Source: a virus
IMG/VR virus record: IMGVR_UViG_3300045988_165774
Location: 1 to 57,052 of that record
DNA: 57,052 nt
Reading direction: 5' to 3' (one strand)
Of the stretch, positions 22,169-54,962 are shown piece after piece (position 1 is the stretch's first letter; every line of letters begins with the position of its first letter). The notes beneath the pieces were generated by a model that saw only the letters and a program-made list of their open reading frames with translations, was not told where the DNA came from and made no database searches. The position numbers and the translations under genes were made by a program.

Positions 22169-23422
22169 TTATTCCCCGATATTATAAATTACATAGTCTA
22201 TTACCTTCCTATTTGCTTCGTCTACTTGTGTGTAGTCATATTCACGGTATTTCTCAATCATTAATCCAGTAACTGAATGCATTAATCCTTTGTCTATTGT
22301 GGAATCCGGTATTCTTAATTGTCCTGCAATTGTTGCCCATGAATGTCTGGCATAGGTAAAACTAAAATGAGGGATTTTATCTTTTTCATTTTTAATATTC
22401 CTATTCATTTCTTCTATGTCCGATTTTATCCTGTCATCGATAAAGTGTGTTAGCTGTTTGTGGTTTTTGTATTTAGTTTTAATCATTCTTATTTTATTTG
22501 GATCAGCATACTTTTTAATTATTTCTAATATTTCAGGTTGCAATTTTAACTTTAGACGTACCTCTCTTGCTGTACGTGCTGTTTTTAGACGACTAATATC
22601 TATATAATTTTCAAAGTAAGGTAAATAGAAAATATCCTTCATATTCATTCCACATAGAAAGAAGGATAAAAAGAAGAAATCACGTCCAATCCCAGGGCGT
22701 TGATAGAATTTTCGTAAGACTTCTATGTCAAGTTTTCTTATCTTTGCTTTATAATCCGATGGAATTGAAATGGCATCAAATGGGTAAAGATCCCGGCTTA
22801 TTACCTTTTGTCCAATTGCCACCTTAAAAACTCTTCGGATACAACGGAGATATTTTGTAAACGACACTTCTTTCTTATTTGTTCCTTTAAGAAAGAATTT
22901 TTTTAATTCTATAAGAGTATAGCTATCTATGTTCTGAAAGTAAATTTTATCAGTTTTAAAGAACTTTATTAATAAATTTTTGGTCCATCTGAATGTATCT
23001 GCGTACGCCTTTCTTTTCATTTCTTCAGTAACCTCTTCGGATTCAAGGTCAAATATAATTTTATCAATGGTTCTTATAAAATCTGTTGATTGTTCGACTG
23101 GTTTCCCTAAATTCAATCTTATTCTGTCATAAGACATGAAAATTTGCTTTAAGGTCATGACTGACATATCCTTAACGGATTCTCCCAATTCTTTATAATA
23201 ATCCTGATATCTGCCTTTTTGAGCAAATAAATCTGAGTTCCATTTCGCTGCCTCTGGAAATTCTTTCTTTATAATTCCATTCCCCTGATCAAAAAAACTG
23301 GGCTCAATATAGTAGTTAGTCGGAATAAAAGTAGGATTTTCCCCCTTTTTCTTAATCTTAATTTTAATGTTTCCTTTTCCTGTCTTTCCTGAAACATCCC
23401 TTAGCACGACACTTAATTCCAT
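22169..23422 (-). CDS. int: Tyrosine recombinase / phage integrase, 417 aa
   Basis: C-terminal catalytic segments ARHSWAT, GLMHS and KYREYDY. Adjacent to a tRNA-fragment attP. Confidence 0.9.
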   Translation of the reverse strand: MELSVVLRDVSGKTGKGNIKIKIKKKGENPTFIPTNYYIEPSFFDQGNGIIKKEFPEAAKWNSDLFAQKGRYQDYYKELGESVKDMSVMTLKQIFMSYDRIRLNLGKPVEQSTDFIRTIDKIIFDLESEEVTEEMKRKAYADTFRWTKNLLIKFFKTDKIYFQNIDSYTLIELKKFFLKGTNKKEVSFTKYLRCIRRVFKVAIGQKVISRDLYPFDAISIPSDYKAKIRKLDIEVLRKFYQRPGIGRDFFFLSFFLCGMNMKDIFYLPYFENYIDISRLKTARTAREVRLKLKLQPEILEIIKKYADPNKIRMIKTKYKNHKQLTHFIDDRIKSDIEEMNRNIKNEKDKIPHFSFTYARHSWATIAGQLRIPDSTIDKGLMHSVTGLMIEKYREYDYTQVDEANRKVIDYVIYNIGE

Positions 23423-23878: not shown

Positions 23879-24946
23879 TTAGTCATTCAAATAGTTTTTT
23901 GCACTTTCAATAATTTCTTTTGAATAATTATATAACTCTTCAAGAGACGTAATTAGGTATTTTGTTCCTTTTTTATTTTCATCAAATACTTCAAGATATT
24001 TATTCGATCGATTAAAATGTAAACGACAGATAGGTTTTCTATTGTTATCATCTAGTAATATGCCAAAATAAGAGATGGTATCTCTATATATAACTCTATT
24101 TAAATCAACAATCCCATGTAAAATTGATTTTACAATATAGAATCCTTGCAATTCTTCTTCTGTAGTTACAATTAAATCTTCTCGGCTTTCTTCTTGTATT
24201 TGTTGTTCCTGATCTTGAGATTTAATTTCATCAGTTTGTGATTTTATTACCGATTTAAGTTTGTCGCTTATGTAATCACTGTTATACTGTTGAAAAGCTC
24301 TTCTTAACATATCTCTAAATTGTTCAACAATTGGTTTCGTGAGCATTGACGGATATACTTGTTTTGCAAAGTATTTTACAAATTCATCAGAAGGATCAGC
24401 TATTTCTTTAACGATTAGATTTCTTAATTCTGTAGTATATTTTAACTCACTTGCAGTATTTAGAATAGATTCAATATCAAAGTAACTTTTATGAAATTCT
24501 TTTAACTTTTCAACTTGAACCTCTTTTAAGTCTTCTATGTTAATCTCAAAAAATGGTTTGTCATCCATTTTATTTGGCTCTACTAGGTCAGCATAGAACT
24601 TATAAATTATGCCGTTTGTGAGTATACCAAATTTAGCTTTAGATACATGATAGTACCTTAGAAGCTGCCCACTATGTAAATTTAAATCTTGCTTCCAGTG
24701 TTTGCATTCGATTAATATAATTGGATCTCCATCTTTACAAATTGTATAATCAATTTTTTCACCTTTCTTTGTTCCTATATCACAAACACATTCTGGTATC
24801 ACTTCTGTTGGATCGAAAATATCATATCCAAGAGATTGTATGAATGGAAGTATAATAGCTGTTTTTGTGGCTTCTTCTGTTGCAATACTTTCTTTTAACT
24901 TGGATGCACGCTCTCCAAGTATTTTAATTTGATCTTTAAAATCCAT
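23879..24946 (-). CDS. HsdR N-terminal-domain-like PD-(D/E)xK nuclease-fold protein, 355 aa
   Basis: N-terminus (EEATKTAIILPFIQSLGYD ... DYTICKDGDPIILIECKHW ... FGILTNGIIYKFY) resembles the type I restriction HsdR_N family. AT-rich gene beside attP. Confidence 0.55.
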   Translation of the reverse strand: MDFKDQIKILGERASKLKESIATEEATKTAIILPFIQSLGYDIFDPTEVIPECVCDIGTKKGEKIDYTICKDGDPIILIECKHWKQDLNLHSGQLLRYYHVSKAKFGILTNGIIYKFYADLVEPNKMDDKPFFEINIEDLKEVQVEKLKEFHKSYFDIESILNTASELKYTTELRNLIVKEIADPSDEFVKYFAKQVYPSMLTKPIVEQFRDMLRRAFQQYNSDYISDKLKSVIKSQTDEIKSQDQEQQIQEESREDLIVTTEEELQGFYIVKSILHGIVDLNRVIYRDTISYFGILLDDNNRKPICRLHFNRSNKYLEVFDENKKGTKYLITSLEELYNYSKEIIESAKNYLND

Positions 24947-26710: not shown

Positions 26711-26783
26711 GCCTACTTAGCTCAGTTGGTAGAGCATCGGTTTTGTACTCCGAAGGTCATCCGTTCGAACCGGACAGTAGGCT
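26711..26783 (+). tRNA. tRNA-Thr (anticodon TGT), 73 nt, CCA not encoded
   Basis: Hand fold: GCCTACT / TA / GCTC-AGTTGGTA-GAGC / A / TCGGT-TTTGTAC-TCCGA / AGGTC / ATCCG-TTCGAAC-CGGAC / AGTAGGC / T. Mismatches at 31-39 (U-U) and 49-65 (A-C). Confidence 0.75.
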
Positions 26784-36671: not shown

Positions 36672-36702
36672 TTTGCAATTATGGATAATAGCCGTATATT
36701 TG
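36672..36702 (+). promoter_or_regulatory. Promoter of cassette 1 (TTTG-N19-TATATTTG)
   Basis: Exact consensus boxes at 36672-75 and 36695-702. Confidence 0.6.
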
Positions 36703-36712
36703 TGGTGTTCAA

Positions 36713-36888
36713 CTGCCAAGACGAACAACATAAATTACGTTAGAAGGGTGTTTTTATGCCCTATTATTTCTTGAATTTTCAAGTAAAATATAGGCCGTCG
36801 AAATTCCTTCGTTGCATAGCCCTTCATCGTAAGTGTTATGTTCGTCTTGGCAGATAACGGGAAAGTCGGCGGCTTTCTTATTTTTATC
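36713..36888 (+). promoter_or_regulatory. Structured leader RNA of cassette 1 (long-range helix plus terminator-like helix)
   Basis: 36713-27 pairs with 36839-53 (15 bp). 36794-801 pairs with 36866-73 and is followed by a T-rich tract. The 12-mer TGCCAAGACGAA is repeated at the start codon (36911-22). Confidence 0.6.
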
Positions 36889-36909
36889 AACTTATAATTC
36901 ATCAACGTA

Positions 36910-37206
36910 ATGCCAAGACGAAGTGAATCTGTAAGTAATGTGAATCATAGTACCATTACAGCACGTCCACCCCGACGAAATGAGGGTCAATTACTTTCTC
37001 AGATAAAAGAGTTGCAAGCACAACTAAATCAAGTAAGACAAAAATTTGAAATCGAAAAGAGCTGCAAGAATAAAGCCTATTACTTTATTCTCAGTTCCGG
37101 AAACTTTCAAAAATTCGCGGAGTTTCATAAAAAGCATAGGGCAAATCTCGACTATCACGGGGCTTGCCTCGCGCAGCTTTATCTTGATTCATTTACTACA
37201 AAATAA
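36910..37206 (+). CDS. Small basic/coiled-coil protein with a conserved Cys/His C-terminal domain, 98 aa (family member 1)
   Basis: RPPRRNEG motif, heptad region, then CKNKAYYFILSSGNFQKFAEFHKKHRANLDYHGACLAQLYLDSFTTK. Paralogs at 44614 and 54062. Confidence 0.7.
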   Translation: MPRRSESVSNVNHSTITARPPRRNEGQLLSQIKELQAQLNQVRQKFEIEKSCKNKAYYFILSSGNFQKFAEFHKKHRANLDYHGACLAQLYLDSFTTK

Positions 37207-37213
37207 CCCTACC

Positions 37214-37939
37214 ATGAAAGAATTAGTTTTAAATTCTAATGGTCAACCTGTGACCAATAGTGTACTTGTTGCCGAAAAATTTGGCAAACAACACAAAAAC
37301 GTAATTGCCTCAATAAGAGCAATTATTGAACAAGCTGAAAATTCAGCCCGTCAAATGTTTGTTGAAAGTCAGTATGTTGACAACAAAGGCGAATCACGAC
37401 CAATGTTTATAATGAATCGTGACGGCTTTACCCTTTTAGCAATGGGATTCACCGGAAAGGAAGCATTGCAATTTAAGCTTGAATTTATCAATGCTTTCAA
37501 TAAAATGGAAAAACAGTTAAAGGAACAAAGCAATCTTTCCCCGGCTGAAATGCTTCTCAAACAATGTCAGATCATGGTAGAACATGAAAAGAGATTGTCA
37601 ACCGTTGAGCAGAAAGTTAATGAGGTATTAGCTATTCGGGAAGAAGCGCAGAAAGACATGTTATCACTCCCTCTTTCTACTGATGCTGTTCCTGAATTAA
37701 GCATGAGAGATAAAGTCCGTGCTTTGGTAAACAAATATTCCATGCACTTCAATGTTCCTCAAAAGAATGTGTGGGACCATATTTACCAAACCCTTTATTA
37801 CAATTATCATATTGCACTGCGTTCCTACGCCAGAAAGAAAAATGAGAGTCTTATTGATGTAGCTGAACGTGTAGGCGCATTGGATAAAATGTACGCAATT
37901 ATTTCAAACCTATCAAGGCAAAACGGATTAGTAGCATAA
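37214..37939 (+). CDS. Rha-family phage regulatory protein, 241 aa (ATG at 37214)
   Basis: N-terminus VTNSVLVAEKFGKQHKNVIASIRAII matches the Phage_pRha pattern. The longer track ORF (37046) overlaps the previous gene out of frame. Confidence 0.75.
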   Translation: MKELVLNSNGQPVTNSVLVAEKFGKQHKNVIASIRAIIEQAENSARQMFVESQYVDNKGESRPMFIMNRDGFTLLAMGFTGKEALQFKLEFINAFNKMEKQLKEQSNLSPAEMLLKQCQIMVEHEKRLSTVEQKVNEVLAIREEAQKDMLSLPLSTDAVPELSMRDKVRALVNKYSMHFNVPQKNVWDHIYQTLYYNYHIALRSYARKKNESLIDVAERVGALDKMYAIISNLSRQNGLVA

Positions 37940-43889: not shown

Positions 43890-44380
43890 TGGCTATCACA
43901 TACCCATCACATTAGTAATGTCTTGATATTCTGTTGTTTTGGGTAATGAGTATCATTCCTGATTATCAATTTATCACATAAAAATGGACGCCATCAAATG
44001 ATGACGTCCGCGCCAACTCCACCACAACAGACACCACAAAAAAAACGTGTCTGCTTTATCTATTCTTACCGAGGTAGACCAATACCCTTACAGAAATAAA
44101 CTCGCAGACACGTATATACGTAGTCCAACGAGCTTAGTATCTGTATTTTTTATTTTGGTCTTTTCGGTAAGTACTAAACTCAGCTACAACAATTACAAAA
44201 CAATATGCGCAACTCTTTGCGTGTGGCAAATATAAGAAATTATTCCTGAATTTAAATTAATAGAATAATGGATAAAGAACTACTAAACAAAATCCTGCCT
44301 TATTGCGGACATGGCCTGAAAGTGATATATGAAGATTATTTGTGTTGAATCGTTAAAAAATAATCCCTATGCAGAATGAT

Positions 44381-44411
44381 TTTGATTTGTCGGAAAAATG
44401 CCGTATGTTTG
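44381..44411 (+). promoter_or_regulatory. Promoter of cassette 2 (TTTG-N19-TATGTTTG)
   Basis: Boxes at 44381-84 and 44404-11. Confidence 0.6.
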
Positions 44412-44422
44412 CTTTCGATTCA

Positions 44423-44592
44423 GACCAAGAATCTTTTAGTGTAATTGAAAGTGCAGCATTTTTTTATGCTGTTATGTGATGTATCTTATCTAAGAAAATA
44501 AGCTACTCAAATCCCTGCGGATTGCTGTGCTTTACTGTACACAATTGATTCTTGGTCGAATTAGGGAGGCGAGTAGCTTTCTTTATTTTATT
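44423..44592 (+). promoter_or_regulatory. Structured leader RNA of cassette 2
   Basis: GACCAAGAATC 44423-33 pairs with GATTCTTGGTC 44547-57. AGCTACTC 44501-08 pairs with GAGTAGCT 44571-78 and is followed by a T-rich tract. The 11-mer recurs at 44616-26 over the start region. Confidence 0.6.
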
Positions 44593-44613
44593 AATTTCAA
44601 ATTTCATACGCGA

Positions 44614-44961
44614 ATGACCAAGAATCGTGAAAATTTGAAAGCTGCTATCAGTGTAGCATCTATTCAACGTCCACCCCGACGAAACGAGGGTAAACTACTG
44701 CAATTAGAGCGTGAAATCAAGACGCTCAAATCCGAAAACCAGGAATTAAAAACGGAACTGGCTGAACAGAAAAGGCAGAACATTCTGGAAAAGCAGAAGA
44801 AAGAGGAAGAAAAACGGTGTAAGAATCGAGCCTATTACTTTATCCTAAGCGATGGTGCTTTCCAAAGGTTTGCCGAGTTCCATAAAACACACCGGGCAAA
44901 TCTCGACTATCATGGGGCTTGTCTGGCGCAGCTTTATCTTGATTCATTTACTACAAAATAA
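44614..44961 (+). CDS. Small basic/coiled-coil Cys/His protein, 115 aa (family member 2; ATG at 44614)
   Basis: RPPRRNEG, coiled coil, then CKNRAYYFILSDGAFQRFAEFHKTHRANLDYHGACLAQLYLDSFTTK. The GTG-started track extension covers the leader. Confidence 0.7.
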   Translation: MTKNRENLKAAISVASIQRPPRRNEGKLLQLEREIKTLKSENQELKTELAEQKRQNILEKQKKEEEKRCKNRAYYFILSDGAFQRFAEFHKTHRANLDYHGACLAQLYLDSFTTK

Positions 44962-44967
44962 CTTACC

Positions 44968-45738
44968 ATGAAAGAATTAGTTTTATTTGACAAAACTCAA
45001 AATAGTATTTTGGGTAATGTCAGATCGGACGGCGACATGCTTAGTCTGACAGATTTATGGAAAGCGGCTAATAGCCCAAATAAAAAAGACCCATCTACAT
45101 GGCAACGCCGTGAATCAACAATTGAACTTATTGATACAGTGTGCAATTTTTTAAATACCCTCAAAATGGGGGTTTTGAAATCTAAGCGAGGGAAATCAGA
45201 TGGAGGGACATGGGCGCATAAAAATTTAGCACTTGCTTATGCAAAATGGTTGGATCCCAAACTCCATATTCTAATAAACGAGGTTTTCTTCCAGCGTATC
45301 GAAGAAGAAAAAAATCCCGACCTTATAGCAGATCGGTACATTAAAGCCTACAAAAAGAGAGGTAAGGATGAAAAATGGATTCAAGAACGTTTTGAAGGGA
45401 AAGTAGTACGTAATACATTTACTTCTACTCTTGCAAAACATGGTGTAAAACATGATGGTTTCCGGCAATGTACGAATGCGATTTACTCCCCTTTATTTGG
45501 CGGTAAAACTGATGTAATCAGACAAAAGAAAAACTTACCGGAGAAAGCTAATATCCGTGATAATCTTTCCCGGCTTGAACTTATGTCAGTGAAATTTGCT
45601 GAAGAATTGGCTTCGGAAAATATTAAGAACAATAATCTACAAGGCAACAATGAATGTGCAAAAGCAAGTTTTATTGCTTCAAACGCGGTAAAAGATTGTG
45701 TTTTAAAAAGCAGACAGAAAATAAATCAAACAATATAA
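44968..45738 (+). CDS. KilA-N domain DNA-binding protein, 256 aa
   Basis: LSLTDLWKAANSP ... GGTWAHKNLALAYAKWLDPKLHILINEVF. Confidence 0.7.
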   Translation: MKELVLFDKTQNSILGNVRSDGDMLSLTDLWKAANSPNKKDPSTWQRRESTIELIDTVCNFLNTLKMGVLKSKRGKSDGGTWAHKNLALAYAKWLDPKLHILINEVFFQRIEEEKNPDLIADRYIKAYKKRGKDEKWIQERFEGKVVRNTFTSTLAKHGVKHDGFRQCTNAIYSPLFGGKTDVIRQKKNLPEKANIRDNLSRLELMSVKFAEELASENIKNNNLQGNNECAKASFIASNAVKDCVLKSRQKINQTI

Positions 45739-45740
45739 AT

Positions 45741-45899
45741 ATGGGTAAAATTTCAATTACATACAATGGGGAAAGTATCCTGATTGAATCAGGGAAAAAG
45801 AAGTTAACAATAACAGCAGAACAAGCATATTATTTAAAGGAAATGTTATCTGATATTGATAGTAAATATAATCTAAGACCACAAATCCAAAACAAATAG
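45741..45899 (+). CDS. Small hypothetical protein, 52 aa (ATG at 45741)
   Basis: In-frame ATG of track ORF 45654..45899, just after the stop of the previous gene. Confidence 0.4.
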   Translation: MGKISITYNGESILIESGKKKLTITAEQAYYLKEMLSDIDSKYNLRPQIQNK

Positions 45900-45974
45900 A
45901 ATATAATAGCAATTCAATAACTCAAACTAGAGGGGTGTAATGCCCCTCCCTAAAATTAATAAGTTCAAACAACC

Positions 45975-46238
45975 ATGATCCCCAACAAAACCAGTAAAGA
46001 CTACAAGCGGCTCAAGGAGCTGCTTGATAAAGGAGAAAAAATAACTGTATTTTTCTTGCATAAATCAGGGTATGGAACTGAGCAGAAAATACGCAAAACA
46101 GCAGAAAAGAAATATAACGAAATAGCACACTGTGACGGATATTTTATAGGCCCAATGACCATATTCCCTTTCAGTCAAAAACCTTTTGAATACTACTGTG
46201 AAAAATACAATGTTGAATTCATAGAGCCAAATTTATGA
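45975..46238 (+). CDS. Hypothetical protein, 87 aa
   Basis: ORF track. Confidence 0.5.
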   Translation: MIPNKTSKDYKRLKELLDKGEKITVFFLHKSGYGTEQKIRKTAEKKYNEIAHCDGYFIGPMTIFPFSQKPFEYYCEKYNVEFIEPNL

Positions 46239-53786: not shown

Positions 53787-53819
53787 GTTGTGAATATCAA
53801 AAAATATTTCATACATTTG
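53787..53819 (+). promoter_or_regulatory. Promoter of cassette 3 (GTTG-N21-TACATTTG)
   Basis: -7 box at 53812-19. The -33 element is only TTG and the spacing is 21 nt. Confidence 0.45.
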
Positions 53820-53823
53820 TCTT

Positions 53824-54036
53824 GCTTAATCTTCTAATGACTGGCGGAGTAAGAGTACCCGCTGTATGGCGGTTTTTTTTATGCCTTATTGATTTGTATT
53901 TTCCATACTTTGTATTTTGTTGTTTGGAAAGGAAAATATTTGTCTAACGGCGTATACCCCCGTAAATCTGTTGTAATGGCAGATTTTAGCCAGTCATGAG
54001 GTGATTAAGCAGCGGGAAAGGTACGCCGTTTTTCTG
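53824..54036 (+). promoter_or_regulatory. Structured leader RNA of cassette 3
   Basis: GCTTAATC 53824-31 plus ATGACTGGC 53837-45 pair with GCCAGTCAT 53989-97 plus GATTAAGC 54003-10. AACGGCGTA 53946-54 pairs with TACGCCGTT 54022-30 and is followed by TTTT. Small hairpin CCGCT-GTAT-GGCGG plus T8 at 53859-80. Confidence 0.55.
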
Positions 54037-54061
54037 TACCTAAGTGCTTAATAAATATATC

Positions 54062-54349
54062 ATGACAAACACAAATCAAACCACCAACCATGGGAAAGGC
54101 ACAGACAATGTGCGTCACACTCACGAAACGGGCGAAATCTTATCACTAAAGCAGCAGCTTGAAACCTACAAAAGGCTGTTTGAAATCGAAAAGAATTGTA
54201 AGAATCAGGCTTATTTCTTCATTCTTTCATGCGGACATTTTGAGGAATACCGCGGATATTGCAAAACGCATCCTACAAATGTAGATTATCATTCTGCGTG
54301 TGTGGATGTTTTCAGACTTCAACATTTAAAAAGAGAAAACCATGAATGA
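54062..54349 (+). CDS. Small coiled-coil Cys/His protein, 95 aa (family member 3; ATG at 54062)
   Basis: CKNQAYFFILSCGHFEEYRGYCKTHPTNVDYHSACVDVF aligns with the C-terminal domain of the 36910 and 44614 proteins. Confidence 0.65.
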   Translation: MTNTNQTTNHGKGTDNVRHTHETGEILSLKQQLETYKRLFEIEKNCKNQAYFFILSCGHFEEYRGYCKTHPTNVDYHSACVDVFRLQHLKRENHE

Positions 54350-54962
54350 GTTGATTAAGATTGTGGAGAATGACGGTAAGAAAGCCGTTTCTGCACGGGA
54401 GCTTTACGAAAAATTAGGGTTTGCGCCTCAGCATTGGGCTAATTGGTATAAAAAGAATATTACTAATAATTCTTTTGCTGTTGAAAATGAAGATTATGCA
54501 CAACTCCCACTAAGTGGGAGAACAATTGATTTTGCCCTCTCTATCGACTTTGCTAAACGCCTTTCCATGATGGCACGTACCGAAACCGGTGAACAAATAC
54601 GTAATTATTTTATCGAAATAGAAAAACGTGCAACCAAACCATTAAGTCAGCTTGACATTTTAGCTCAGTCAATCCAAATCCTGCAAGCACAGGAAAAACG
54701 TATTTCAGAGATAGATGATCGAGTTAAAGTTATTGAGGCAAAACAGACTACACACCAAAACTGGTTTACCATTGCCGGATATGGAACACTTCTTAAAATA
54801 CAGGTCGGAATAAAACTGGCAGCAAGTTTGGGAAGGAAGGCATGTAATCTTTGCAGACAACTTGGCATTGAACCGGAGGAAATACCAGATCCGCGATTCG
54901 GGAAAGTCAAAACCTATCCCGAAAATGTTTTAAAGCAGGTATTTGATATGCCAATTAACTAA
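54342..54962 (+). CDS. AntA/AntB-type phage antirepressor-like DNA-binding protein, 206 aa
   Basis: VSARELYEKLGFAPQHWANWYKKNI ... FAVENEDYA ... DFALSIDFAKRLSMM pattern. Confidence 0.7.
   Translation: MNELIKIVENDGKKAVSARELYEKLGFAPQHWANWYKKNITNNSFAVENEDYAQLPLSGRTIDFALSIDFAKRLSMMARTETGEQIRNYFIEIEKRATKPLSQLDILAQSIQILQAQEKRISEIDDRVKVIEAKQTTHQNWFTIAGYGTLLKIQVGIKLAASLGRKACNLCRQLGIEPEEIPDPRFGKVKTYPENVLKQVFDMPIN

Follow-up and report, generated by a model that had tools for sequence, protein, structure and literature searches.

To our knowledge, the immunity RNAs c4, CI, CB and IsrK are known only from phages of Proteobacteria, and they are gathered in one Rfam clan (CL00128), with isrK filed separately. 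We report the analysis of a structured leader RNA of approximately 170-175 nt that recurs in many phages of Bacteroidales, that is present in three copies in an Odoribacter prophage, IMG/VR virus record IMGVR_UViG_3300045988_165774 (positions 1 to 57,052, the whole of which is referred to below as the window), and that stands there, each time, ahead of a small open reading frame (ORF) and a gene for an Rha, KilA-N or AntA protein (cassettes 1, 2 and 3, respectively). The account centres on cassette 2 (44381-45738, + strand), whose leader carries a short specificity element, X, close to its predicted 5' end, the complement of this element (anti-X) further downstream and a second sense copy over the start codon of the small ORF. 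By analogy with c4 and CI we consider it probable, though well short of certain, that the leader RNA is an antisense-type riboregulator of the small ORF and of the KilA-N/Rha/AntA operon.

Several described systems bear on this locus. The specificity boxes of the heteroimmune phages P1 and P7 differ with compensatory changes, and in the hok/sok mRNAs the tac, fbi and ucb/dcb elements covary while programmed folds control translation of a small ORF. The P1 record AF234172 is annotated in the order a1, b1 - c4 - a2, b2 - icd - ant1. In the satellite phage P4, immunity is arranged as seqA - CI (seqB) - seqC and combines an antisense box made from the leader, premature termination and downstream silencing (PMC4825925). 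Demonstrated for IsrK-orf45-anrP of Gifsy-1 (Salmonella) are a leader small RNA ending at its own Rho-independent terminator, an mRNA that arises by partial read-through, alternative long-range pairings and the translational coupling of the small ORF to its neighbour (PMC4825925). The zipper attenuator of the pLS20 family is built on an imperfect stem of considerable length, the extension of which draws in a weak stem-loop at the 5' end and sequences adjoining an intrinsic terminator (PMC13401043).

Three-way complementarity and covariation of the element X

The element X of cassette 2, GACCAAGAATC, has exactly three matches in the window, two sense and one antisense, against 0.05 expected, and none of 100 shuffles reaches three; the arrangement is real and far beyond chance. 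The 5' copy lies at 44423-44433 (+ strand) and the third copy at 44616-26, where it dictates codons 1-4 of the small ORF (ATG at 44614), while anti-X, GATTCTTGGTC, at 44547-44557 (+), has two complements, the 5' copy and AUG+2..+12. All of the coordinates that a preliminary description had assigned to cassette 2 match the sequence, and the copy of the 11-mer that it had pointed out over codons 1-4 not only is present but covaries in relatives.

Related loci were found with the small protein as query: 80 in IMG/VR, 80 in metagenomes and 5 in species-representative genomes, these last from Butyricimonas, Tannerella, a Bacteroidales metagenome-assembled genome and Chryseobacterium. Dozens of them, among which are loci of Odoribacter, Butyricimonas, Tannerella and Paraprevotella as well as metagenomic ones, retain the repeat with compensatory changes, and the Chryseobacterium homologue, a longer fusion protein, is the only one without a leader. 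Exact triples of X, its reverse complement and X occur at about -190, -65 and +2 in nearly all of 43 distinct IMG/VR leaders. Some 25 different X sequences are found among the 59 distinct leaders overall. In almost all of these leaders the ATG is preceded by X at a distance of about 180-196 nt and by the reverse complement of X at about 58-70 nt, and the third copy starts at base 2 or 3 of the start codon. Leaders that lack an exact triple have versions of X in two blocks or with one indel, or else a misassigned ATG.

The antisense element is complementary to ORF positions +2..+10 in all 23 classes, although positions +3, +5 and +7..+11 are variable, and in 20 of the 23 the U of the AUG stands opposite a G, as a wobble. 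An exact 10-nt complement is found in 15 of 21 classes but in only 1 of 4200 shuffles of the same regions. Because a MAFFT alignment of whole leaders (A4) misaligns the antisense region, the pairing of X was tested on extracted boxes and by alignment-free means. In the boxes for the antisense element and the translation initiation region (TIR; 29 sequences, 319 cells, AUG+1..+11), which were taken by best ungapped match, a choice favouring pairing, 99.7% of the cells are paired and 7 of the 11 pairs have double changes. Covariation is scored at 0.71, compared with 0.18 in shuffles, of which none of 500 reaches the observed value, and pairing drops to 29-45% when the partner is shifted. The core of the 5' copy is likewise paired with the antisense element at close to 100%, with double changes at 12 of 16 pairs. 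The alignment-free duplex energies agree, cognate antisense and TIR sequences averaging -22.4 kcal/mol and non-cognate ones -14.4, and cognate antisense and 5' regions averaging -40.5 kcal/mol against -20.5.

The pairing of the 5' copy is part of a much longer helix, P1, in which the first ~45 nt after a TAnnTTTG box pair with the region that ends at the antisense element. Across 42 leaders P1 has a mean of 34 bp (range 23-37) and energies of -28 to -49 kcal/mol, and it contains 126 G-U pairs as opposed to 16 single A-C mismatches, an asymmetry which points to selection at the RNA level, on the + strand. In cassette 2 the 5' arm (44417-44458, +) is paired in the minimum free energy (MFE) fold with the 3' arm (44523-44562, +), which includes anti-X; the duplex amounts to -42 kcal/mol and takes in the extension GTGTA 44439-43 / TACAC 44538-42. 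The helix between the 5' and middle elements had been recognised in the preliminary description, which nevertheless understated its length, in fact ~34 bp that take up the initial ~45 nt of the transcript. A small stem-loop presenting CCAA in its loop is a further fold open to the 5' copy; in the isolated 5' arm of cassette 2 it consists of GATTC 44417-21 and GAATC 44429-33 around the loop AGACCAA.

The predicted promoter of cassette 2 (44381-44411, +) is of the Bacteroidetes type, with a consensus established for Bacteroides promoters. Its sequence, already proposed earlier and confirmed here, is a -33 TTTG (44381-84), a 19-nt spacer and the -7 box TATGTTTG (44404-11), from which transcription would start at about 44416-18. 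In 49 of 50 related leaders the 5' copy is immediately preceded by the TAnnTTTG box, and most of them have the TTTG with a spacer of ~19 nt; since the box is conserved at this place, X falls within ~10 nt of the predicted 5' end.

Helix PT, predicted alternative folds and display of the target

The three leaders of the window fold far better than their shuffles (z = -6.4, -7.7 and -5.0). Besides P1, they contain a helix, PT, which in cassette 2 is formed by AGCTACTC (44501-08) and GAGTAGCT (44571-78) and has within it a shorter helix, PT2, formed by TCCCT (44512-16) and AGGGA (44563-67). The 5' strands thus occupy 44501-44516 and the 3' strands, together with the U-tract TTCTTTATTTTATT (44579-92) that follows, 44563-44592 (all +). 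PT is 98.8% paired, with double-sided changes at 8 of 8 pairs and with G-U wobbles, and RNAalifold, applied de novo to an alignment without the 5' arm, recovers PT and the inner PT2 (TCCC/GGGA) with 9 of 10 pairs compensatory. In the preliminary description this was an enclosing helix followed by a U-run; both are present and the helix covaries, but it is not nested. Of the two strands of PT, the 5' one falls within the long helix and the 3' one beyond it, directly before the U-tract, so PT crosses P1. Given a 34-bp helix and short linkers, PT and P1 are most likely alternative conformers rather than the two parts of a (strained) pseudoknot.

Predicted folds are consistent with such an alternation. 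The MFE fold of the full-length leader of cassette 2 contains the long helix and a local terminator-like hairpin at 44563-83, with a probability of only 0.05 that anti-X is unpaired. When the first 45 nt are removed, the MFE fold in every class examined is a compact domain of ~90 nt, closed by PT/PT2 and containing two hairpins, one of which shows the conserved UUGG core of anti-X in its loop, and the probability of being unpaired rises from 0.05 to 0.51. A terminator scan flags this local hairpin (44563-44583, +, a stem plus TATTTTATTA), which would be an alternative to PT/PT2, and also 36859-79 in cassette 1; a G+C-containing stem followed by a U-tract, as in intrinsic terminators, is found here, and in the aligned leaders the covarying 3' strand of PT is directly followed by UUUCUU. 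In cassette 2, with the start near 44417 that the promoter suggests, the long helix ends at 44562 and adjoins the local hairpin without overlap, but its formation excludes that of the PT/PT2 conformer.

Two further hairpins lie between the arms. The first (44453-44472, +; GCAGCAT-UUUUUU-AUGCUGU, conserved as TTTTTATG) has a U-rich loop and a stem that covaries in alignments A4 and A6, and in the P1 conformer of the MFE fold its 5' half is taken into the long helix. The T-run plus ATGC motif at 44459-70, noticed earlier as a shared feature, is indeed common to 36750-60 and 53873-85. The second, CTTAT...ATAAG (44485-44502, +), stands directly 5' of PT and is the counterpart of a conserved TATATC-GCAAA-GATATA hairpin of the relatives.

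The target, too, is displayed in the predicted folds. When the region -25..+45 is folded, nearly all of 33 classes show an A/U-rich stem whose loop, of 13-20 nt, holds the AUG and X, these being 0.7-0.9 unpaired; in cassette 2 this stem-loop (44595-44640, +) is formed by TTTCAAATTT (44595-604) and AAATTTGAAA (44631-40), with the AUG at 44614 and the third copy of X in the loop. Loop-loop geometry of this kind is typical of antisense RNA systems. Within the window, the antisense elements pair with their cognate TIRs at -24.9, -19.0 and -18.3 kcal/mol and with non-cognate ones at -6.8 to -13.4. The RNA without its 5' arm and a free 5' arm give, with the cost of unfolding included, -14 to -27 kcal/mol for cognate and -2 to -8 for non-cognate combinations, and the full-length leader on its own TIR nets 0.0 kcal/mol in cassette 2, -2.2 in cassette 1 and -5.1 in cassette 3. 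Furthermore, in phages with two or three cassettes X is always different within one genome. Diversification of X at all three sites, together with orthogonal cassettes, is to be expected of determinants that are able to act in trans, as in the heteroimmune P1 and P7.

Some natural variants of the 5' arm deserve mention in their own right. In one relative (L029:2289-2318, IMGVR_UViG_3300045988_177419) the 12-nt loop of the X-bearing 5' stem-loop is exactly inverted, from AATTGGCAAAGC to GCTTTGCCAATT, with respect to the leader L019, to which the remaining leader is identical; the inversion is flanked by 9-bp inverted repeats, GTGGTGCTC/GAGCACCAC, and is predicted to unmask the antisense element (probability of being unpaired 0.6 against 0.0). 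This may be either a 'switch-locked' variant of natural origin or a template-switch mutation of the quasi-palindrome type. Another leader (L122:659-904) is without the promoter and the entire 5' arm, the upstream sequence being unrelated, and retains the U-loop hairpin, the PT domain, the antisense element, the TIR copy and the small ORF. Finally, short ORFs overlap the promoter and the 5' arm, one of 36 codons in cassette 2 (44369-44479) and one of 20 codons in cassette 1 (36682-36744); their translation on upstream read-through transcripts would hold the 5' arm unpaired, and no conservation of these ORFs was found in the other leader classes.

The cassettes, their genes and the phage

The small ORF of cassette 2 (44614-44961, +) encodes a 115-aa protein of a conserved Bacteroidales phage family, 64% identical to that of cassette 1, which starts at 36910, and 38% identical to that of cassette 3. 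Its only matched annotation is a hypothetical protein of Odoribacter splanchnicus; the family comprises 409 clusters (E<=1e-3), all hypothetical, with PF25966, on two clusters, as the sole Pfam domain match, and the three proteins of the window have no Pfam, PHROG or PADLOC match. An AF2 model (pLDDT 77) is essentially one long helix, for which neither a Foldseek match nor a PDB sequence match was obtained. The protein had been called a Cys/His protein in the preliminary description; it is conserved, but only His100 and Cys103 are nearly invariant, Cys69 being Ala in many homologues, and this pattern of conservation does not support a zinc-binding Cys/His protein.

The downstream gene of cassette 2 (44968-45738, +) starts 6 nt past the stop of the small ORF and encodes a KilA-N domain protein (Pfam KilA-N, 2e-18; PHROG 'transcriptional regulator'). 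As an aside, the C-terminal half of this protein (residues 105-243) has matches to two of PADLOC's candidate families for defence, PDC-S13 (4e-25) and PDC-S22 (3e-12). The gap between the small ORF and the partner is 7 nt in cassette 1, and in cassette 3 the two overlap by 8 nt. Over 21 classes the partner genes are KilA-N in 7, ANT/KilAC in 6, Rha in 4, AntA in 2 and Bro-N in 1, in line with the earlier remark that the small protein is conserved while the family of the paired gene varies. One relative (L121:1180-1824) encodes a 214-aa fusion in which a KilA-N N-terminal part is followed by the C-terminal domain that is conserved in the small protein (NAKNKAYYFIISSGNF...), an arrangement which hints that the small protein and its partner may act together. 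In the Chryseobacterium locus (L085:2998-3650) the small-protein domain heads a 216-aa protein.

Cassette 1 (36672-37939, +) has its promoter at TTTG 36672-75 and TATATTTG 36695-702, its 5' X, CTGCCAAGACGAAC, at 36713-26, the antisense element at 36840-53 and the TIR copy at 36911-22. Its U-loop hairpin lies at 36745-62, the PT strands at 36794-807 and 36860-73 and the U-tract at 36874-87, followed by the small ORF (36910-37206) and the Rha gene (37214-37939). Cassette 3 (53812-54962, +) has the same architecture in a divergent and longer form, whose target is in two blocks: a -7 box (53812-19), a 5' arm with a two-block X (53823-45), an antisense element (53989-54011) and TIR blocks (54045-66), a terminator-like hairpin with U8 (53859-80), PT strands (53947-58 / 54020-29), the small ORF (54062-54349) and the AntA gene (54342-54962). 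Its counterpart of the U-loop hairpin (53859-53880) is a canonical terminator-like stem, CCGC-TGTA-TGGCGG, followed by the U8, and the 5' arm, in which a sense mimic of the start region lies, could be released there as a separate RNA of ~55 nt, recalling the IsrK/SeqA RNA.

The elements of a leader architecture common to the three cassettes, with compensatory changes, had been proposed before; they are verified here and covary across dozens of related loci. For cassette 3 the architecture holds, but the sequence is too divergent for a covariance model of the main class. This model (R1), built on the PT domain of the main leader class and searched against the window, scores 79 bits on cassette 2 and 74 bits on cassette 1, finds only the U-loop hairpin of cassette 3 (17 bits) and detects no further copy of the leader in the window. 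A weak match at 24847-24898 (+; 18.8 bits, E 0.32) is limited to a hairpin of the U-loop type (AGCTGTTTTTGTGGCT) and a T-run; an unrelated terminator is the probable explanation.

The window is the genome of a temperate siphovirus-like phage that encodes terminase, portal, holin and lysozyme. A tyrosine integrase (22169-23422, -; Arm-DNA-bind_5 and Phage_int_SAM_5 domains) and a tRNA (26711-26783, +) sit between the structural block on the - strand and the early block on the + strand, and the three cassettes lie within the replication/recombination block of the + strand. A blastn search of 44300-46000 against GenBank phages gave no match. A retron was considered and discarded, there being no reverse transcriptase gene after the leaders, as was a tRNA-like element, the only tRNA of the window being that at 26711-83; a scan of the whole window with cmscan at the gathering threshold likewise returns the tRNA only.

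Readings of the leader and known systems

We propose that each cassette has its own Bacteroidetes-type promoter, from which transcription would give a leader RNA of ~170 nt ahead of the operon and would then either terminate or read through. In state 1, anti-X would pair with the extreme 5' arm in the ~34-bp helix and be buried, the 5' arm so serving in two roles, those of intramolecular mask and second target. Were the 5' arm occupied, cleaved off or absent, the RNA would adopt state 2, the ~90-nt domain closed by PT/PT2 before the U-tract, with anti-X in the UUGG loop, from which anti-X could kiss the stem-loop of the start codon or the 5' stem-loop of other cognate transcripts, in trans. 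Initiation in Bacteroidetes does not rely on Shine-Dalgarno pairing; by pairing over 11-12 bp with the AUG and with codons 2-4 of the small ORF, anti-X would block initiation. The effect would be repression rather than activation: the leader-derived RNA, processed or not, would silence the small ORF and thereby, through translational coupling, a partner gene that we presume to be of the antirepressor type. Diversification of the specificity box between phages, and among the two or three cassettes of one phage, would create orthogonal channels.

A number of observations weigh against this proposal. The promoter, the terminator and any processing are predictions. Anti-X is fully buried in the full-length leader and state 1 is ~20 kcal/mol more stable than state 2, so that anti-X would reach the start codon only if the 5' arm were removed or occupied. 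In cofolding, the RNA without its 5' arm nets just -5 to -10 kcal/mol on the TIR and the non-cognate values, which are noisy because of pairing between the U-tract and A-rich sequence, overlap with these. The extraction of the covariation boxes, those behind the counts for the 23 classes and for the 5' copy included, favours pairing, as noted above. Constancy of position, permutation tests and the duplex energies obtained free of alignment speak against an artefact, and the first two of these, with the control in which the partner is shifted, limit the bias without removing it. In 5 of 21 classes (L137, L140, L067, L145 and L146) the small ORF is followed by an HNH/NUMOD4 endonuclease, and inspection of these loci showed no similarity of the next gene to antirepressors; as the partner gene is swappable, and is HNH in some classes, the constant unit is the leader with the small ORF. 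No CI-like repressor gene is recognisable anywhere in the window. Finally, the three leaders have no Rfam match to C4 or c4-a1b1 and no credible match to isrK (E<=10), and comparison of the small protein with P1 Icd gives an hhalign probability of 0.4% and a BLASTP E of 0.023 over 42 residues. The one isrK match, at 53792-53879 (10 bits, E 9.4), is noise.

The main rival is an attenuator and translational switch, of the zipper or timer type, that acts in cis only and involves no RNA in trans; we regard it as a serious possibility, if an unlikely one. The long helix would zip co-transcriptionally and decide on termination at the PT or T hairpin, and after decay or cleavage of the 5' end the freed anti-X would close the start codon in cis, giving a timed and self-limiting pulse of expression. 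The long imperfect stem, the weak 5' stem-loop and the terminator-like hairpin directly 3' of the stem fit such a device, which resembles the pLS20 zipper attenuator (PMC13401043); anti-X and both of its partners are moreover on the same transcript, and with state 1 so strongly favoured read-through mRNAs would by default have a free TIR. It would, however, leave unexplained both the diversity of X (~25 variants) and the cassettes of each genome, always different and mutually orthogonal, which are expected if the RNAs meet in trans, and a trigger to free anti-X would be required in any case. A pathway like that of hok, or of type I toxin-antitoxin systems more generally, in which the small protein is toxic and successive mRNA conformers are inert until processing, seems to us improbable. 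Coupled three-way covariation of alternative pairings, reportedly described as a signature of hok mRNA by Gultyaev, Franch and Gerdes in 1997, speaks for it, and the small ORF has no recognisable family while icd, its equivalent by position in P1, is a cell-division inhibitor. Yet an overlapping antisense gene is lacking, the protein, modelled as a long soluble helix, has neither transmembrane nor toxin-like features and no PADLOC match, and the consistent pairing with regulator genes points to the control of an operon.

Explanations at the level of DNA, or of chance, fare worse. Two direct sites and one inverted site for a DNA-binding protein, covarying to fit that protein, would account for three copies of 11-14 bp around a promoter and gene start whose specificity differs between related phages, as heteroimmune operators do. 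Against such operators, which we hold to be very improbable, stand the strand-specific wobbles (the excess of G-U over A-C in P1 and the U of the AUG facing G in most classes), a complementarity of ~34 bp with bulges instead of a short box, and the separately covarying PT helix and the hairpins around the copies; the small proteins of cassettes 1 and 2, besides, share identical C-terminal ends despite different X, which leaves X without a candidate protein of matching specificity. That the repeat is fortuitous, or a functionless scar of recent duplication, is scarcely credible: the AT-rich sequence favours it and nothing else does, the three matches far exceed expectation, and the compensatory conservation in dozens of relatives excludes the recent scar without conservation that the preliminary description had envisaged.

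A bolder extension of the antisense riboregulator that we prefer is that the cassettes are self-propagating bistable switches made of RNA only, in which the repressed state is inherited without a protein repressor, with three orthogonal channels (Rha, KilA-N and AntA). A leader in state 2 would capture a cognate leader, still nascent, by its 5' stem-loop and prevent formation of the long helix, whereupon the captured RNA would itself fold to state 2, terminate and expose its own anti-X. We put this forward tentatively and think it rather doubtful; if it were true, the leaders would be a natural library of ~25 orthogonal riboregulators for initiation independent of Shine-Dalgarno sequences. Even the simpler antisense reading would provide a testable handle on how Bacteroidales prophages, which are little understood, control antirepressor-type genes, and hence on induction in the gut, and the mutually orthogonal natural specificity boxes are potential genetic tools in Bacteroides. 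The same logic in temperate phages of gut Bacteroidales, without homology, would suggest convergent invention or extreme divergence, and the use of the start codon itself as target would be an adaptation to a phylum that initiates without Shine-Dalgarno sequences.

Of the systems introduced at the outset, the immI region of P1 and P7 is the closest in layout: a promoter, an upstream copy of the target, an antisense RNA, a downstream copy at the start of a small ORF and then an abutting gene, for an antirepressor in P1 and presumably of that type in most classes here, with specificity boxes that differ between relatives through compensatory changes. The domain without the 5' arm (~90 nt) is similar in size to c4 (77 nt), and both are closed by a stem of their own two ends. 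As in the c4 family, an antisense segment is complementary to the TIR of the first downstream ORF, and nearly all of the leaders have an upstream copy of the target on the same transcript, though without a match to the c4-a1b1 or isrK models, which together with C4 readily detect P1 as a positive control (RF01695, 68.8 bits; RF03163, c4-a1b1, 51 bits; RF01394, isrK, 35 bits). The target here is the AUG with codons 2-4, whereas in P1 it is the Shine-Dalgarno region; the upstream copy lies within an intramolecular helix of ~34 bp in place of two short boxes; the 3' end is at a U-tract, with no processing signal of the RNase P type evident; and there are three orthogonal copies per genome, in phages of Bacteroidota.

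The likeness to P4 CI lies in one antisense box complementary to upstream and downstream sites on the same transcript and in a regulator derived from the leader of its own operon; P4, however, controls replication genes and processes CI from the leader, and no Rfam homology to it is found here. With IsrK the cassettes share, as predictions, a leader with its own terminator, long-range pairings that touch the initiation region of a small ORF and the position of that ORF before an antirepressor-like gene, but IsrK is an activator in trans and repression would be the outcome here. The long imperfect stem of the pLS20 zipper has its counterpart in the helix P1, with its mean of 34 bp; the zipper belongs to Gram-positive conjugation operons, lacks a diversifying specificity box and does not repeat its 5' element over the start of the next gene, and the zipped helix of cassette 2, ending just before the local terminator hairpin, need not disrupt it. 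In common with hok/sok one element has two alternative partners, all three covarying; the overlapping antisense gene and evidence of toxicity are lacking, and the partner genes are regulators. The searchable literature yielded no description of the leader RNA or of the small protein family. The cassettes are thus best regarded as analogous to the c4, CI and IsrK families rather than as demonstrable members of them, and as an apparently undescribed Bacteroidales version of antisense control encoded in the leader, in which the phylum, the absence of homology, the start-codon target and the multiple orthogonal copies per genome are new.

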